Source of the DNA: a virus
Lineage: Duplodnaviria; Caudoviricetes
Length of the DNA stretch: 25,158 nucleotides
Strand: one strand, 5' to 3'
IMG/VR virus record: IMGVR_UViG_3300014613_000458
Location: 1-25,158 of that record
The notes beneath the pieces are model-generated. The model did not search any database. It had not been told where the DNA came from and saw only the letters and a program-made list of their open reading frames with translations. Of this stretch, positions 2,903 to 25,158 are shown piece after piece. The position numbers were made by a program, and so were the translations under genes. How positions within the stretch are numbered: position 1 is the stretch's first letter; each line of letters starts with the position of its first letter.

Positions 2903-5196
2903 ACAACAACCTCCTGCCATCGTATCCTTAATCCTAAACGTGGAGGTAGATTTTTCTCCTGGATAACTTCTACTTCTTGAGGATAACCTGGCTGTAGTAT
3001 AACCCACGCATAATCCGTTCCTGCCGTCCCAGCCGTATACTCACCATAGCGTAAGTCTGCGAATTTTACGAGACTGGTAGACGTTCTTGCAGTTCGGAGG
3101 TTGCTCCTGAAGGTTTTGGCTTTACGTTGTGGCATATCTCCAATATCATACACCGCCTCATGCACACGAATAACTTCCGGTTTCTCTATCCCTCTTGCTT
3201 GAAAGAATAGAACCTCTGGAGTAGTGGTACTGTCTGTTGTTGCCAGGTGTAATTCAAATTGTATCCTGTTGCTACTTAACACTGAGGTTAGTGATGTCTT
3301 AACAATCCCATTAGTCGTGATAGCAGATGTTAAATTCGTAGCAATAGTATCAACATCCTTCCGGTATTTAGGGGTTACAGTCTCGTTAGCTGAACAACCT
3401 ACCGTTTCTGTAATTATTGTCTGGAAGAGTTTATCCCAGTACGGGTTCGACCCGTAAGTGTAACTCATCCTGAGAAATCCACTTGAAGCGAATAATGCAC
3501 TATTGTCAGCAGTAGGGTTGTCTGTCAGTTGAACATATCCCGTATGTGTACTATAGGCAAACCATAATCTTCGGTCAGCAGCAGAATGGGATACTGTCCC
3601 GATTACTTTACCCCCATTTGTACCAAGATAAATAAAGGGACACCAACTCCAACGGAGTTGACTGTTACTATCTCGGTATTCATGCCCTTTATAAATATGT
3701 ATAACTGACCATTCTCTAACAGCTACATATAACCAGTCTCGGTCTGCTGCTATCCCAACAATATCCCCTACCTTGTTGATGTCCTCAACATCAACAAGAG
3801 GCCCCATTGCTTTCGTTGTGTTATAGGCTGATAATTCACCCATCTGCTTTGCCAGAGAATAGTAGGCAGACGACTGGAAATTAGCAACATACTCAAAGTT
3901 TGCCGATGATTTGTTCTTTTTCAGGTCAGACATTTGAGGATGAACTCCGCCATCAGAACTGTATCTGTAAAGTTCATCAGTTTTCCCAACGAAAAGTTGG
4001 TCATTGTGAAGAAATAAGTTAGTTGCATTAGTGGATGTATCCCCAATATAAGTAACACTGCTCCATTGAGAACCCCCTCCTGCTACAGTTCTTCCGTCTG
4101 TAGTATAGGAAAGTTCGTTAGGTGTTTTAACCTTCCATAGAACATCTTGGGTTCCTGACGGGTTGGGTGCTACCAGGAATTTGTTGGCATAACCAGCAGT
4201 AAGGTCTGTAACCGTCCAGGTTATTCCATCAGAGGAATAGTAATATAAACTACTTGCTCCCAAAGCAGCATAGATAATCCCGTTATACTCGATAAGGTCT
4301 GTGACACCAGCCACATCTGTAGTAGCTGCTATCCATCCTATGCCATTATAATAATAAATCTTGGAGATGCAAGCGGTTAAGTACACGCCTGCGGTTGTGG
4401 CATATAGAAATACGGATGGTGCTGAGTCTAATTCAGTTGCCCCAACTGCCCACTCTTCAAATAAAAAATCTCTTGTAGCTATAGTAGTCCAGTTTGCCCC
4501 AGCATCGCTACTGGTATAATATTGACCTCCTGTATAAGTAGGAGATGTAGCGTCTGCTCTCCATATAAGAGAGGTTTGCGTAGCATTAGAACTAGTCCTT
4601 ACTACTAGGGCATAAACCGTCCCGGATGTGAGACTTAAACTTCCGTGAATAGGAATAGTTACCCATGCCTTAGTTGTAGATAGGGTGTTTCCATCAATAG
4701 TACCTATAGCCAAATCATCGCCTGTTGGAAACCCTGAAGCAGTTGCTCGTATACCAACCCGTATAAATCCAGGATACATATTTACAGTTCTTGCTAGATA
4801 TAGTTTTACTCCCGCTATTACATGCGTTGAAGCAGGGGTAAACGTCTGAGCTTTATAAACACCGCCACCAAAAGAAACATCGGAATCATCACCTGTAATA
4901 TAATATTGCTTTCTGGCTGCTCCGGCCTCGACTTCTGTAATCTTAGGGCCGAGAAAGACCTTACCCTCTTGTGTCGTATCAATGCTCTGACCCTCAAAAT
5001 ACATACTGGGGTCTGCTGTAGTGTGTTGCCCGTGACCACCACGCCAGTCCATTTGAGAGAATAACATTGGATTCTGATATTGAGGAATGTCCTCCGCAAC
5101 AGAGTACATCGCTCTGCCTTCTTCATCTCGAAGTAAGTTTAATCCGTATGTGTCGCTGCCAACTACAATCTCATGGTCGTGGGTTCTTTTGGGCAT
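2899..5196 (-). CDS. tail nozzle/hub-like protein (P22 gp10 / T7 gp12 analogue; beta-propeller), 765 aa
   Basis: Size, position after the adaptor-like gene, Asp-box-like motifs (SSDAGANWT, SSDGITWT) and beta-rich blades. Start MPKRTH at 5196 by TAATG coupling. Confidence 0.6.
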   Translation of the reverse strand: MPKRTHDHEIVVGSDTYGLNLLRDEEGRAMYSVAEDIPQYQNPMLFSQMDWRGGHGQHTTADPSMYFEGQSIDTTQEGKVFLGPKITEVEAGAARKQYYITGDDSDVSFGGGVYKAQTFTPASTHVIAGVKLYLARTVNMYPGFIRVGIRATASGFPTGDDLAIGTIDGNTLSTTKAWVTIPIHGSLSLTSGTVYALVVRTSSNATQTSLIWRADATSPTYTGGQYYTSSDAGANWTTIATRDFLFEEWAVGATELDSAPSVFLYATTAGVYLTACISKIYYYNGIGWIAATTDVAGVTDLIEYNGIIYAALGASSLYYYSSDGITWTVTDLTAGYANKFLVAPNPSGTQDVLWKVKTPNELSYTTDGRTVAGGGSQWSSVTYIGDTSTNATNLFLHNDQLFVGKTDELYRYSSDGGVHPQMSDLKKNKSSANFEYVANFQSSAYYSLAKQMGELSAYNTTKAMGPLVDVEDINKVGDIVGIAADRDWLYVAVREWSVIHIYKGHEYRDSNSQLRWSWCPFIYLGTNGGKVIGTVSHSAADRRLWFAYSTHTGYVQLTDNPTADNSALFASSGFLRMSYTYGSNPYWDKLFQTIITETVGCSANETVTPKYRKDVDTIATNLTSAITTNGIVKTSLTSVLSSNRIQFELHLATTDSTTTPEVLFFQARGIEKPEVIRVHEAVYDIGDMPQRKAKTFRSNLRTARTSTSLVKFADLRYGEYTAGTAGTDYAWVILQPGYPQEVEVIQEKNLPPRLGLRIRWQEVVV

Positions 5197-13998: not shown

Positions 13999-14874
13999 CT
14001 AACTTGTTGGGGCTGTCGCATCACTCTTGATTAGATAAACCCAGTTGGACAATCTCTGCCCATAGGCATACTCATCATAGTGATAGATGTGTTCCCCACC
14101 ACCACCACGCTTCTCGTTCCTTACGGATACGATTCGTGGAGCACGACCTTGAACTAATATGATTCCGTCCATTGCGAATACGCCAGCCTGGGCATCACCG
14201 CCTGAATCAATGGTAATGTTGCCATCTTCGTATACCTCCGCACCCGCTACCGGAAGTTTGAATCCACTTTGGTAGACAGTAGCAGTCGGGCCAGCATCAA
14301 CAACGTAAGTTCCAACACCAGCCACTAGTTCGTCATAGAGGTCTTTCAACTGGAAACCATGAGCCACAAACCTGATAGGTTTCTTGCCAGGTTCGGTTGT
14401 GTTACTGGTAATGTTGTAAGCAGCAGCAGCAACATGCCCTGAAGTCAATGTTACACCCGCACCAGGGGATGCAGTTGTAGAAGCACTGGCGAATAATGTC
14501 AACCCATCGGTACCTTTCTTGCGCTGAATAGCGTTCTGAGCAAGACCCCCGATTTTACTTAGACCTATTTTAGTTATGCGTGCTTTAACCCTATCAGTTA
14601 CAAAGGTCTCAATACCAACAACAGTTGGCGTGATGGTAATTACCGAGTCGGCAATTTCCTGTGGGTTTTCAAGAACAGTGGTTTCTGTGATTGCCTGAGC
14701 AGTTAACTGGTCATATTTAATTTCCAACCAAGAGTTCCCGATACCCTCACCGAGAGTTTGCTTTTCTACCAGTTGGGGCATAACGCCCTCAAACTCACGG
14801 ACTATTCTTGCTGAAGAACGGACACTATCCAGACTATCAGCAAGGGATGAAGTAATAGTATCTCCACTAGCCAT
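13999..14874 (-). CDS. major capsid protein (HK97-fold expected), 291 aa
   Basis: Follows the scaffold-like gene; E-loop-like LTAQAITETTVL...ITITPTVVG, backbone helix (GGLAQNAIQRKKGTDGL), C-terminal YAYG; SD AAGGAG. Confidence 0.8.
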   Translation of the reverse strand: MASGDTITSSLADSLDSVRSSARIVREFEGVMPQLVEKQTLGEGIGNSWLEIKYDQLTAQAITETTVLENPQEIADSVITITPTVVGIETFVTDRVKARITKIGLSKIGGLAQNAIQRKKGTDGLTLFASASTTASPGAGVTLTSGHVAAAAYNITSNTTEPGKKPIRFVAHGFQLKDLYDELVAGVGTYVVDAGPTATVYQSGFKLPVAGAEVYEDGNITIDSGGDAQAGVFAMDGIILVQGRAPRIVSVRNEKRGGGGEHIYHYDEYAYGQRLSNWVYLIKSDATAPTS

Positions 14875-14883
14875 ATTATCTCC

Positions 14884-15603
14884 TTATGAGACCAGACCTA
14901 ATTTCTTAGCTCGGTCATAATTTACTTTTGTTCTTATGTCAACACTTCCGTCAGCAACTTCCTTTATGAAAGCCTCATCTGAATTGTTGGCCACTCCAAA
15001 CCCTCCCTTGTTCGTTGTGTCTACAGAATCAAGACCTAAATCCTTCCTTAAATTAGCCTCCAGTTCTTTAAACTGATTAGTCAAAGCCTCTTTCTCCTTT
15101 ACCCGATTCTCACCTACAATACTCGAAACAGATTTACTCCACCTGTTTCGCCCTGTTATAAAATCGGTTGCGTCTTCAGCCCAGTCAATACGGGAATCAT
15201 TTGGGTCAACACCCAAATCTTTTGCTTCTTGTGTTAACTGTTCTTTTAATTGATTAACAAAGACTTCCTGTTGCTGTCTCTGTTTCTCTTCGGCTTCGAC
15301 TTGTAAGCGTGATTGGTCTCGATACCTGAGTTCTGCCAGTTCGACAGTCTGATTGATATTCCCCTGTTCTGGGTCAAAGTTCTGCAAACTAGCTTTAATC
15401 GCATCTGCTGCGGAATCCTGCCTTACAGCCCTCTGTATACGTGCAATCTCGGCATCCTTGATTCCCTGCATCTCCCGCCTGCCAACATCTTTGGCTTTGG
15501 TAGTTGCTTCTAAAATCATTTGTTGCACTCTTTCTTCAGTCAAAGGTTGTGGTGAAGGGGTCTCCTCTACGGGAACCTGCTCCTGCGAAACGATTTGTTC
15601 CAT
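14884..15603 (-). CDS. capsid scaffolding protein, 239 aa
   Basis: Acidic, E/Q-rich coiled coil immediately upstream of the capsid gene; SD AAGGAGGAG. Confidence 0.75.
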   Translation of the reverse strand: MEQIVSQEQVPVEETPSPQPLTEERVQQMILEATTKAKDVGRREMQGIKDAEIARIQRAVRQDSAADAIKASLQNFDPEQGNINQTVELAELRYRDQSRLQVEAEEKQRQQQEVFVNQLKEQLTQEAKDLGVDPNDSRIDWAEDATDFITGRNRWSKSVSSIVGENRVKEKEALTNQFKELEANLRKDLGLDSVDTTNKGGFGVANNSDEAFIKEVADGSVDIRTKVNYDRAKKLGLVS

Positions 15604-15620
15604 TTCTCCTCCTTTAAAAT

Positions 15621-15667
15621 AAAAAAACCGATATTCTCGGCTTCCTAAAAGCTCACAAAAATATCGG
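15621..15667 (-). terminator. intrinsic terminator/attenuator in the scaffold leader
   Basis: CCGATATTTTT / GAGAATATCGG 11-bp stem followed by T7, ending 17 nt before the scaffold ATG. Confidence 0.75.
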
Positions 15668-15683
15668 CTATCTAATAGCTCAC
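15637..15683 (-). promoter_or_regulatory. tandem 20-nt hairpin repeats GTGAGCT(A/T)TTAG(AT/GA)AGCCGA
   Basis: Units at 15683-15664 and 15656-15637 are 17/20 identical; all three differences preserve base pairing. Confidence 0.8.
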
Positions 15684-15707
15684 TTATTCAGTTGTAAACG
15701 TACTACG

Positions 15708-15875
15708 TTATTCTACCACACCTTGTCTAGTTTCTGCAACTATTAATTTCTGATGTCGGAATACATGATGACGATGACACTTTGAGCGCCAGCATCTTAT
15801 CTCTACCTTATCCTCTAAATCACGTCCGAGGATAGTGTTGCATGAGTCGCAACGAAGATAACCATTGGAGTCTAT
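15708..15875 (-). CDS. Mu Com-like zinc-ribbon protein, about 55 aa (IDSNGYLRCDSCNTILGRDLEDKVEIRCWRSKCHRHHVFRHQKLIVAETRQGVVE)
   Basis: Hand-translated; not in the ORF track. RCxxCNxxL...VEIxCxxxxC signature. No ATG/GTG/TTG precedes the motif in this frame, so the start is uncertain (ATA 15875, ACG 15878, or frameshift). Confidence 0.7.
   Translation of the reverse strand: MDSNGYLRCDSCNTILGRDLEDKVEIRCWRSKCHRHHVFRHQKLIVAETRQGVVE
15710..15739 (-). promoter_or_regulatory. sigma70-type promoter for the scaffold/capsid leader
   Basis: TTGCAG - 18 bp - TAGAAT with an extended -10 (TG-n), inside the 3' end of the Com-like ORF. Confidence 0.55.
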
Positions 15876-16000
15876 CGTTTTTTAGTTCCTTTTAACTTTC
15901 CCTTATTAACAGAAGCATAAAAGACTTCTTTGCCTTTCTTTTCTCCGTAATCCTTTTTCATACTGGCAAGTACCTTTTTCCCTTTATCTGTAAGTGGCAT
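15872..16000 (-). CDS. small basic protein, 42 aa (MPLTDKGKKVLASMKKDYGEKKGKEVFYASVNKGKLKGTKKR)
   Basis: Hand-translated; not in the ORF track. SD GGAGGTG. The MPLTxKGKK...YG.KKG..VFYAS.NKG pattern recalls a recurrent tiny podovirus protein of unknown function. Confidence 0.85.
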   Translation of the reverse strand: MPLTDKGKKVLASMKKDYGEKKGKEVFYASVNKGKLKGTKKR

Positions 16001-16008
16001 CTCACCTC

Positions 16009-19000
16009 CTAATAAAATATTCTTAACGCAGTTGCCATCTCAGGATTCTCGAATTTCAGACGTTTCTTTAGTATGACTATCATTTTTCTAACTCGTATAA
16101 TTGTAGGATTTTGTATCAATAATCTCTTAGCTTCTCTTGGGTCAGTTCGTTCAATGTTGTCTATCTGTACTGCTATCTGTTTCAACTGCGGGTCATATTG
16201 CGCCCATAACTGGTTCTCTATCTCCCAGTACGGTTTTAATGTCACCCTTGCTTGCCTTAAATATTTCACCGCCATTGGCTCGTCAGCACGCTTCTCCCCT
16301 ATAATAGTTTCTACCGATAATAACGCCTGCTCACCATAACGCTCAATAAATGCTTTCCTGCGTCTATCAGCTTCATCGAAACGATACTCCCCATACTGGT
16401 CGAACATATCAGGTGAGTACATCAGTTCGTTATAATCCCTGTATAAGAGTTTCTGCGGCTGCATCTCTTGTCTCTGAATTTCAGTTAATGGTCGCTCGAA
16501 AGTGTCTTTGACAACTCCAAACTCTCCTTCAGCTAGCAGTTCATTCATCATCTGTGCTTTTAACCAGTATGCTCGACTAACTCTTTCTCTGAATTTCTGA
16601 CCATCACCTGTGGTCTCAAACTGCAATGAAGCTTGATTAAGTTCCGTCCCTACAACTTCACCTATCTTATCTGCTCTATCACTGTATTCATTCCATATTA
16701 ACTGTTCACCATGAGCATACCTGGCAGACTCTTCAGATGCCTTATCACTTAATACTTTCAAATCAGGGTCTTTCATAATCTGCATCTGCGCCACCATACC
16801 ATCAGGTCGTTGCCCTAAAGCATCCCATGATACACCATACTGTTCTTGTGCAAGTTTATCCTGTAACTCGCTTAGTTGAACATACGCACCAGCAGGATAT
16901 GCTCTACCACCACCAAACTCAGTCAGTCCTCTAGTAATTCTATCTTTTAAATCTCCACCTTCCATCATTACACTTTGAGTCCATATAGGAGTGAGATTTT
17001 CTAAAACTACTGTCTCGGTGAGATTCATTAGACCTTCTCTGGTTGGGTCTCCCATAACATCCTTCCCTGTGATTAAATCAATACTCGTACCTAAAAATGG
17101 TGAGAAATTACCACGTATAAATCTTCCAGCCTCATAAGTAGCATCTTCAGGGTTCTTGGTCATCTTACCAAATAGATACATTAGACTTCTTACCTTTGAC
17201 CCTGGGCCTATCCTCTGCCCTGCTACATCCCATGTCATAAAATTACTGGACATTGGATTCAGATGCTCGGCAATCGTATCTTCGTCTTCCCCCATTGCCA
17301 GGGAAACAGCAACCGTCATCGCCATTATCGCTGCCGTCCCTTTCGCCATTGCCTGTCGTGCCAGTTGACCTCTTAGATTGCCCTGTGTCAAGTCTGTTAA
17401 TAAAGCACCAACAGCCCTGTTATACTGAGGGGCTAGAATAATCGCCCTTTCTACCTGTCGTTGTGTACTTGAAATACCGATACGTGTGCTTGTCGATAGT
17501 CCTCTGAACTCGTTAATGAAAGCGTCAACCTGCGCTATTCTAGCAGGGGATGTTCCAAGATGCTGATATGCTTCTGCCATGTAGACACCAGCAGTATCTA
17601 AAGATGTTTCAAATCCTCTCTGGAACGGAGTTAGAGGCTTGCCTAAAACTTTTAACGGCCCCTTATGTAAGAATCCTTCTCTAGCCATAGCCTCAGTCAT
17701 TTCCGTAGCACCACCCTTGGAAACAATAAGTCCGGGATGATTTTGGATTGTACTGATATGTTTTGCTATGAAGTTATCGTGATAGAGAGGGTCGAAAAAC
17801 GCTCTTACAAATCCCTTCATTGATTTAAGATATATCGCAGGATGCGCTCCTGCCAAGAACAATAACTGAATCCCGAAGGGACTCACATCTCCTGCCAGTG
17901 CGAAGTAACGCCCAACGGCATTGACCTGGTTGATTGCACTTAATGCAGAGTTGAAAGAAGGATTTAACTCTTTCCGTATGATATTGATATAGTCTTTAGC
18001 TTCTGGTGAAGTAAATACCTTTCCTGCAAAGGCAGGGATATCAGACGCCATAGTACCAGTAAATCCAGGTCTAACTAATGACTTACGTGCCTTTGTGAAT
18101 TCCTTTTTTATATTTGCCCATTCTGCCTTATAGACAGTCTGTTCATTACGGACGAATCTCAACACGCCATCAACATCAGGTTGAGTGTACTTGCCTTTAG
18201 TAAAGAGTTTTAACTGTTCATACTCTTGAGGATAGTATTGCTTGATTCCACGTAGCATCTGTCCTGAGACAGATTCGTTATTCTTTAACCTTAATGCGAT
18301 ATTGTTCATCTGCTTTAGGGCTACTTGAGTCCCCTTCATTGTATTGTTTAGAACAGCAAGGTCGCCACCTACTGCGGTAGACCTATAGGGTACTCTCTCT
18401 AAGAACCAGTCTGCGAATTTTTTATCTGCTACACGATTGTATGCTCCGACTGTGTTATAATATAATGCTTCTTCTTCAGGGAGATACCTGAATCCATTGT
18501 CTATCGCTTCATCAATATCTTTAAAGACACGTACCTTTTCCTGTGCTGTCTTTATTCCTGGTTTAGCAGGTTGTGTACCACCAATAAAAGCTGACTCGAT
18601 TAACTCCCCTTCTGGGGTGAACTTAGCGGCGACCCTTCTTCCTGCATATACCCCACCTTCCTCGAATGTCAATAAAGGTACATCCACTCCATGTCTCTGT
18701 AATAGAGATAACTTCTCTGCTTCTAACGCTTGTGCAGTAGAAATCCACTCTTTCTGCTTTAGTGTCAGTTTATCAGCATATCTTTGGGGATAGGTTCTAA
18801 TTGTATTGAGATGTACTTCTTGCCCACCAATCTTCATTAATCCATCGTCAGTAAGATTAAATAACTTTTTAGAACTACCCATTCTATTCAATGTAGAGAC
18901 TGCTGCTATGGATTTATGAGCACCTTCAAATCTAAGAATAGCTCTACCTACTAAACCTAAAGACGCAGGATTATCAGCCGTAGCCGCTTTGCCTGCGATT

Positions 19001-24704: not shown

Positions 24705-25052
24705 TCACACTAGCCTATCTTTAACCACATCCATTCTAAGACCACCATAGCTAACCGTAGTCAACAGGCTAACAGATTTTCCCAGGCCGGTAGATGTTGC
24801 GTGGTCCAGGGCATCGCATATCATCAGGAGCTTAGCCGCTCTTACGCTGTCGATATATATACCATTATCTAATGTTAACCCCGATGTTAACCCCTCAGAC
24901 ATGGACTCTAATGTTACGCCCTCAACCACTGTTACGCCCTCAGGCGTGGACTCCGATGTTACGCCCTCTTCAGATGTTACGCCCTTGTTACGCCTTCTTT
25001 GCATCCTCAACCGTGATTGTTCCTTGGCTTTCTCTTTGTCCTTCGTTGGCAT
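24705..25052 (-). CDS. hypothetical protein with a basic helix and EGVT repeats, 115 aa
   Basis: ORF track; SD GGAGG; RLRMQRRRNK followed by a DNA-repeat-encoded GVT/GLT region. Confidence 0.7.
   Translation of the reverse strand: MPTKDKEKAKEQSRLRMQRRRNKGVTSEEGVTSESTPEGVTVVEGVTLESMSEGLTSGLTLDNGIYIDSVRAAKLLMICDALDHATSTGLGKSVSLLTTVSYGGLRMDVVKDRLV
24873..24996. repeat. iteron-like array: TGTTACGCC x5 and TGTTAACCCC x2
   Basis: TGTTACGCC at 24912, 24930, 24957, 24975, 24986; TGTTAACCCC at 24873, 24885. Confidence 0.9.
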
Positions 25053-25158
25053 CCTTTCCCTCCAATAGTAATCTATTAGCTATCTCAGCTAGCTTCCTGC
25101 TCTCTAACTCTAACATGTCAGGCGTCAATACGAGAAATTGCCCGGTTACACTGACGTC
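24988..25158 (-). CDS. partial CDS (C-terminal 56 aa), possibly terminase small subunit
   Basis: Open frame from the window edge: DVSVTGQFLVLTPDMLELESRKLAEIANRLLLEGK...AKKA*. Position upstream of terL suggests TerS; the identity is inference. Confidence 0.45.
   Translation of the reverse strand, partial: DVSVTGQFLVLTPDMLELESRKLAEIANRLLLEGKDANEGQRESQGTITVEDAKKA

Follow-up and report, generated by a model that had tools for sequence, protein, structure and literature searches.

A Com-like zinc-finger gene and a hairpin leader overlapping a terminator: a candidate antitermination switch before the head genes of an environmental phage

In the CAT-RAT switches of BglG, SacY and LicT, a weak hairpin held by the protein shares its 3′ arm with the 5′ arm of the terminator, and in ANTAR leaders the hairpin overlapping the terminator is the downstream one. 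A review of RNA-binding antiterminators covers the CAT, ANTAR and HutP systems, and the whole words “zinc” and “phage” do not occur in its available text (PMC12591593). The Com protein of phage Mu has one tested role, the translational activation of mom, according to the available part of PMC6483171. The same source gives the SELEX consensus of Mu-like Com as hairpins of the form GAGNNCC-N2-3-GAGNNCC with a variable 3–4-bp stem, the winning sequences containing an invariant C-G loop-closing pair and a protected GA in the loop. The Pfam family PF10122 was named in one paper, a review, in the available text of which the wider regulatory role of Com stands as unexplored (PMC6240691). A literature search that lay mostly outside subscription journals found neither Com-dependent antitermination nor the leader motif described below in any paper, and in the main texts of PMC2864571 and PMC5737381 Com does not appear as a gene.

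The stretch of DNA analysed here (the window, 25,158 bases) is a virus record found in four groundwater runs belonging to three studies, one of which may be its source; no RNA run was listed among those containing it. On its minus strand, a Com-like ORF is followed by a leader with two small hairpins (hairpins 1 and 2) and a predicted terminator, and then by probable scaffold and capsid genes. The reading proposed, with a probability of roughly two in three, is that hairpin 1 of the nascent RNA is likely bound by Com, which would permit readthrough from a predicted promoter at the end of com into these genes; it draws on sequence, homology, conservation, covariation and co-occurrence, together with predicted folds. 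Such a switch would work like CAT-RAT or ANTAR antitermination, but with a divergent Com homologue as the protein. As in CAT-RAT, the hairpin predicted to be held by Com shares its 3′ arm with the terminator stem, whereas the protein here is a zinc finger of ~55 aa and not a CAT-PRD protein, the genes are phage late genes, and control is apparently exerted by protein level. Two small hairpins, conserved loop letters and a terminator-forming alternative pairing are features in common with the ANTAR leaders of EutV, AmiR and NasR (available text of PMC3369931), but the protein fold is unrelated and a sensor domain is absent here; moreover, it is the upstream hairpin here that overlaps the terminator, while the downstream one is enclosed by it. 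In the available text of PMC6483171, the Mu mom site is likewise a hairpin with a 5′ GA, a short stem, a 5–6-nt loop ending in GA, and CC, and, adjacent to com, an inhibitory hairpin likewise overlaps the target. That hairpin is a translation-inhibition structure in Mu and a U-tailed terminator here, and this locus further differs in having two units and in preceding head genes instead of a DNA-modification gene. An Rfam search of 15300-16100 was empty up to an E-value of 5, and at the gathering threshold nothing in the whole window matched.

The gene order on the minus strand is terminase (PHROG matches), three large ORFs, a 42-aa basic ORF (15872..16000), the Com-like ORF (15708..15878), the leader, the probable scaffold gene (14884..15603, 239 aa) and the major capsid gene (13999..14874, 291 aa). 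The earlier note had placed scaffold, capsid and tail genes downstream of the leader. The capsid assignment was borne out by Atlas feature and structure matches to PF25209 (Phage_capsid_4) clusters; the first gene past the terminator is a probable scaffold gene from its position before the capsid gene and an Atlas lead to PF09306 at 0.88 only; and the downstream ORFs gave no convincing tail-family match in Pfam or PHROG. The 42-aa basic ORF directly upstream of com has a homologue at the same junction in the related locus L081 and no Pfam or PHROG match. Its stop codon, TAG, lies across the start region of com, which makes translational coupling possible. Small basic ORFs of other kinds precede the scaffold gene in L006, L010, L011, L035 and L054. 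Upstream of the terminase, a 115-aa ORF contains short repeats of a GVT-type peptide motif (24880-24990, minus strand).

The cysteine-rich ORF described in the earlier note was confirmed on the minus strand with its end at 15708, and its likeness to Com, then a conjecture, held. The 55-aa product matched phrog_13819 gpCom with an E-value of 7.5e-4 in the PHROG search and was identical to Mu Com (NC_000929) at 14 of 29 aligned positions, and a profile of 14 family members matched Mu Com at 96.5% (E 7.6e-10). Both proteins have a four-Cys zinc finger of the layout R-C-x2-C-N-x-L...E-I-R-C; the four cysteines (C9, C12, C28 and C33) are invariant in 14/14 family sequences, and the second pair is spaced Cx4C here, which is a difference from Mu Com. 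Comparison with L081 over 39 codons gave 23 synonymous differences on 24 sites and nine non-synonymous ones on 93, an excess indicating that the frame is kept as protein by purifying selection. The Com-like proteins of relatives matched phrog_13819 in 6/15 cases and phrog_6417 (“translational regulator”) in 9/15. In the Pfam search PF10122 was not matched by the 55-aa peptide; four of the 14 family members matched it, and its curated cut-off was passed by none of 29 contigs (best 21.6 vs 22.9 bits). Neither a Com model in NCBIfam nor, by Pfam, a CAT or ANTAR domain was matched by the peptide, and no such domain was among the 25 of 61 families listed. The predicted structure was a four-strand model (pLDDT 72). 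In a Foldseek search nothing matched with E ≤ 0.001, the weaker matches being generic zinc ribbons with a “Com family” entry ranked 21st (E 0.79), and a PDB sequence search with the Com-like protein gave unrelated zinc ribbons only; fold and PDB searches do not discriminate Com from other zinc ribbons. By its sequence matches, the protein is classed as a divergent Mu Com homologue and not as a member of PF10122. More widely, an annotated phage collection queried with a relative's Com yielded 20 weak matches, and the Com family profile collected 659 proteins (E up to 0.001, 50%-identity representatives), some of which are unrelated zinc ribbons. At 15811, contigs of runs X1 and X4 have a plus-strand C (Gly, usual in the family) where the window has T (Asp21).

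The com ORF of the window has no ATG, GTG or TTG start. An ACG (15878-15876) is followed there by ATA (15875-15873), which overlaps the stop of the upstream ORF, and the contigs of runs X1 and X4 that cover the com start list no other letter. Ten of ten close relatives have a start codon at this position (seven ATG, two GTG and one TTG), and in comparison com may be weakly made or dead in this copy. A weak start, perhaps by re-initiation, may operate; that this copy is effectively untranslated is possible, though doubtful, and even then the reading at the level of the family is unaffected.

The twin units reported earlier, 20 nt long with a 27-nt period, were found at 15683-15664 and 15656-15637 on the minus strand. 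When folded, each consists of a G-C pair, a bulged A and a short stem, topped by a loop whose last letters are GA or GG. Hairpin 1 (15666..15681, minus strand), the predicted Com site, has a stem of 4–5 bp and a loop ending in GA; hairpin 2 (15639..15654, minus strand) is a second Com-type unit capping the terminator stem. A pattern derived from these same units had two matches in the window against 0.12 expected, and a looser hairpin rule found three sites, two being the twin units, against 1.0 in shuffles. Hairpin-like matches in the terminase gene (23987-23971) and near 25085 were set aside, with no terminator and at chance level. An exact twin-unit pattern, too strict, gave no matches among viral contigs. 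A K-turn (L7Ae-type) reading of GUGA...CGA was dropped, as the flanks vary in relatives while bulge, stem and loop stay. Of the ten fixed positions in the SELEX result (available text of PMC6483171), the window hairpins matched seven and six, the Mu site eight and hairpin 2 of L005 all ten, counts for which no null was computed; in place of the SELEX C-G closing pair the window hairpins have A-U or U-A. In shape, both hairpins resemble the published Com target and are candidate sites.

The earlier note had read the differences between the two units as preserving pairing, and comparison with relatives upheld this for hairpin 2. Located by sequence anchors alone, hairpin 2 was recovered in 12 of 13 twin elements (leaders with both units) with all 36 inner pairs intact, and the units so located had seven different stem sequences. 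A gap-free alignment of 11 of the 13 units (L004 and L133 omitted for length), with coordinates from a script requiring pairing and with relatedness kept in the test, showed pairing in 54 of 55 cells, with 17 double changes, a result obtained in 0 of 500 shuffles; slid controls gave 27–53%. The twin hairpins expected downstream of com homologues were also found. Hairpin 1 is kept in every element, and the second unit is absent from 14 single-hairpin elements. A second phage subfamily (L084, L095, L101, L102, L108, L109, L119, L122 and L125) shares hairpin 1 and the terminator overlap but lacks the second unit; its Com-like proteins are longer, and the genes downstream are different. In L101 the element is apparently present twice. 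The divergent Com-like proteins of L047, L049 and L052, and of L076, are accompanied by different hairpin loops overlapping strong terminators, and these pairs are possible specificity variants.

Co-occurrence of the gene and the RNA was examined in sets selected in three ways. A capsid search among genome contigs gave three loci. For the capsid-selected set, the best 80 of 126 loci and the window were reduced to 40 clusters, of which 10 with <2 kb upstream were dropped. Among the 30 remaining groups (best 80 of 126 loci), five had Com and the element, two Com only, none the element only and 23 neither (Fisher p 1.5e-4, kinship ignored). The Com profiles had been built from element-linked genes, and the capsid-selected positives are therefore partly circular; the Com of L014 was found by profile though outside the training set. 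The two groups with Com only contain, as read by eye, variant hairpins with the 3′ part in a U-tailed stem. A whole-contig search for Com in 20 of the 23 negative groups, mostly fragments, left 19 blank and gave one partial match with a stop. In the capsid tree (best 80 of 126 loci), Com-bearing phages are read as occupying five positions separated by Com-less phages, L042 lying within a well-supported clade with six Com-less groups.

For the RNA-selected set, a pattern combining hairpin 1 with the 3′ half of the boxA word (described below) gave 58 loci in 36 groups. An overlapping terminator was present in 18/36 under a strict rule (null, 2/469 sites) and in 24/36 with one mismatch. Com lay within 1.5 kb in 13 of the 24 terminator-bearing groups vs 0 of the 12 without (p 0.002), and in 9/20 vs 0/12 after removal of four training contigs. 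A second profile, which gave a weak unrelated match in one of 11 control contigs, found Com in nine of the remaining 11, one weakly and one through a near-duplicate contig. A Com-like gene is thus found in the contig or a near-duplicate contig for 22/24 terminator-bearing groups; in the element groups L106 and L131, both fragments, no Com gene was found. Two elements, L107 and L125, share a contig at a distance of 7 kb, a hint of a small regulon. The protein-selected set comprised 11 metagenome loci, namely the window, two loci already known and eight new records (two near-identical); all eight have twin units and the terminator, one of them behind an inserted ORF. By these sequence comparisons, in which kinship was ignored in the counts, gene and RNA travel together and are taken to be a real, conserved module. 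Inserts between com and the leader, HNH-like (a label given by eye) or other, were seen in L192, L003 and L001.

The predicted intrinsic terminator (15621..15669, minus strand) is a long stem enclosing hairpin 2, followed by U7 (15627-15621). The 11-bp stem with U7 drawn around hairpin 2 before the Shine-Dalgarno sequence in the earlier note was placed, from CC at 15667-15666 to GG at 15629-15628, but the stem proved longer and includes the 3′ arm of hairpin 1. The leader (15615-15700) folded at −23.3 kcal/mol with a z-score of −3.9, 1/200 shuffles being as good. In unconstrained folds, the 3′ arm of hairpin 1 pairs with the strand before the U run in 13/13 twin elements. The same arm doubles as the terminator foot, with the overlap in the bottom 3–4 pairs, and the predicted binding hairpin and the intrinsic terminator are mutually exclusive in 13/13 predicted folds. 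Holding hairpin 1 in the 13 twin elements costs 2.4–7.8 kcal/mol and frees the last 3–4 bases, leaving a stem of 8–12 bp at 3–4 nt from the U run which, as modelled, might still terminate. In the window, hairpin 1 forms in nascent folds of 55–70 nt and falls to ~0.05 in the full leader, where the pairing probability of hairpin 2 is 0.92–0.95. The models thus suggest that hairpin 1, and not hairpin 2, competes with the terminator, and that hairpin 2 fits the terminator fold. Hairpins 1 and 2 have like endings, so that the 3′ arm of hairpin 2 can also form a short terminator with the terminator 3′ strand. This alternative hairpin (15626..15642, minus strand; −6.5 kcal/mol; 15646-15622 in the scan) is a possible back-up terminator and is of full length in 7/13 elements; in these models it suggests two locks, or may be a by-product of duplication.

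A sigma70-like promoter within the ORF had been claimed earlier. A TG-extended −10 (TAGAAT, 15715-15710) was found at a conserved position, while the −35 (15739-15734) is poor, with 3/6 letters and an 18-nt spacer, and a consensus promoter scan did not list a promoter at the end of com in the window. The predicted promoter spans 15710..15739 on the minus strand, with +1 estimated near 15704. The end of the −10 hexamer lies 28–31 nt upstream of hairpin 1 in 6/9 elements but not in the other 3/9, and L003 and L082 have a perfect TTGACA −35. The boxA-like word proposed after the ORF stands at the predicted transcript start (15685..15703, minus strand), but in the window it is degenerate, with 7/10 specified letters of the consensus GYTCTTTAANA (available text of PMC5725501); the word of L042 has 9/10. 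Published boxA consensus words are UGCUCUUUAACA in E. coli and AUGAUCUUUGAAA in B. subtilis (PMC13753749, part of the text). The boxA pattern of the phage family occurred in 68/201 genomes of one bacterial phylum, about equal to its backwards control, and only its position before 16S genes is therefore informative: in seven of the 20 loci fetched the word lies ~190–200 nt upstream of a 16S gene of the same orientation, where it continues boxA. The window word has two mismatches to the family pattern found there. In the nascent folds of the window (15703-15650, minus strand), the boxA-like word pairs with the linker, lengthening the hairpin 1 stem (−12 kcal/mol), a pairing not seen in the relatives' folds.

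These features could also be read as processive antitermination of the lambda N type, with the boxA-like word and hairpin 1 as a nut-like site at which Com and host Nus factors would load on RNA polymerase, the modified enzyme then ignoring this terminator and later ones. A boxA-like word with a predicted protein-binding hairpin behind it, close to the 5′ end of the phage transcript, recalls the boxA-spacer-hairpin order of lambda nut and, in its boxA, the rrn leaders (PMC2724277, PMC5725501 and PMC13753749, each in its available part), the two are 3–5 nt apart in nine aligned elements, the related extended word before 16S genes favours it, and the long stem surviving the binding of hairpin 1 suggests that extra help may be needed. 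Such a mechanism is nevertheless unlikely here. The spacing is not fixed in all relatives, with inserts of 52–76 nt in L187, L188 and L195 (3/8 new records); Com-less phages (L013, L058 and L067) carry a boxA-like word in the same slot, whereas the leaders of L047 and L049 have Com and the terminator overlap and no such word; and the window word has three mismatches in the boxA core. Unlike lambda, the locus has neither an N-like arginine-rich protein nor a boxB loop, and its hairpin overlaps the terminator, a fixed overlap which that model does not require. The boxA-like word looks like a separable promoter-proximal module. In L058 (~3140-3250) and L067 (~3070-3175), it stands before the scaffold gene with other nested hairpins and no Com gene, and in L060 (before 3067) directly 5′ of the Shine-Dalgarno sequence, again with no Com gene. 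In L013 (2956-3105), a DUF2292-like small ORF (PF10055, E 4.8e-4, below cut-off) occupies the slot before the scaffold gene, and the leader behind it has a boxA-like word and a U-tailed stem together with a hairpin of another kind; this may be an exchangeable switch that uses a different small protein.

Since hairpin 2 forms inside the terminator fold and keeps operator features under covariation, with a better SELEX match in L005, Com might instead bind it atop the terminator as a negative regulator, stabilising termination and limiting head-gene output. This is improbable, given that hairpin 1 is the unit kept everywhere while the second is dispensed with in the single-hairpin elements, that the folds have the terminator as ground state already without protein, and that Mu Com is an activator (available part of PMC6483171). 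Translational activation as in Mu mom, with Com binding freeing the ribosome-binding site of the scaffold gene, is the sole function tested so far in the family according to the same partial source; the element ends ~7 nt before the Shine-Dalgarno sequence (15606..15614, minus strand) in the window, and in a truncated fragment the 5′ arm of hairpin 2 can pair with that region (z −1.0). This too is highly improbable, as the hidden start signals of a mom-like gene of the Mu type were not found: the Shine-Dalgarno sequence is unpaired in the full folds and the next genes are the probable scaffold and capsid genes. Moreover, its distance from the U run varies, reaching well over 100 nt in L001, while the U run is conserved among element groups. 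A decoy, in which a short promoter-to-terminator RNA would titrate Com or host NusB and head genes would be expressed by leaky readthrough, agrees with the promoter, boxA-like word, two predicted binding sites and terminator lying within ~85 nt, but is scarcely credible, as the 17 nt from the U run to the scaffold start are too short for another promoter and a decoy has no need of a terminator that destroys hairpin 1, as it does in all 13 predicted folds.

Readthrough controlled by Com at hairpin 1 is the preferred reading; promoter activity, binding, readthrough and timing are inferred, as follows. The promoter at the end of com would be a late promoter firing into the leader terminator, and hence off by default. 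Without Com, the terminator 3′ strand would invade hairpin 1 and an RNA of ~85 nt would be released; Com on hairpin 1 would block the bottom 3–4 pairs beside the U run. Hairpin 2 probably acts as a second lock, its 3′ arm and the terminator 3′ strand forming the short back-up terminator, and Com would then be needed on both sites. The boxA-like word, as a separate module, likely recruits host NusB/S10. Com would be made from the upstream packaging transcript, and head-gene expression would thereby be timed after that transcript.

A fuller version of this scheme, somewhat unlikely and put forward tentatively, is a two-lock RNA in which Com on both hairpins and NusB/S10 on boxA at +1 would open the leader terminator and also confer protected elongation through the late operon. 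If that were true, Com zinc fingers would represent an undescribed class of transcription antiterminators, and an N-like late switch would be provided by a 55-aa zinc finger.

The whole switch of ~270 bp, with its natural sequence variants, is directly testable in a reporter. If readthrough controlled by Com at hairpin 1 is correct, a Com-operated terminator would be a second mechanism for the Com family and a zinc finger would join the RNA-binding antiterminators. It would also explain the timing of head-gene expression in environmental phages without a recognised late activator.
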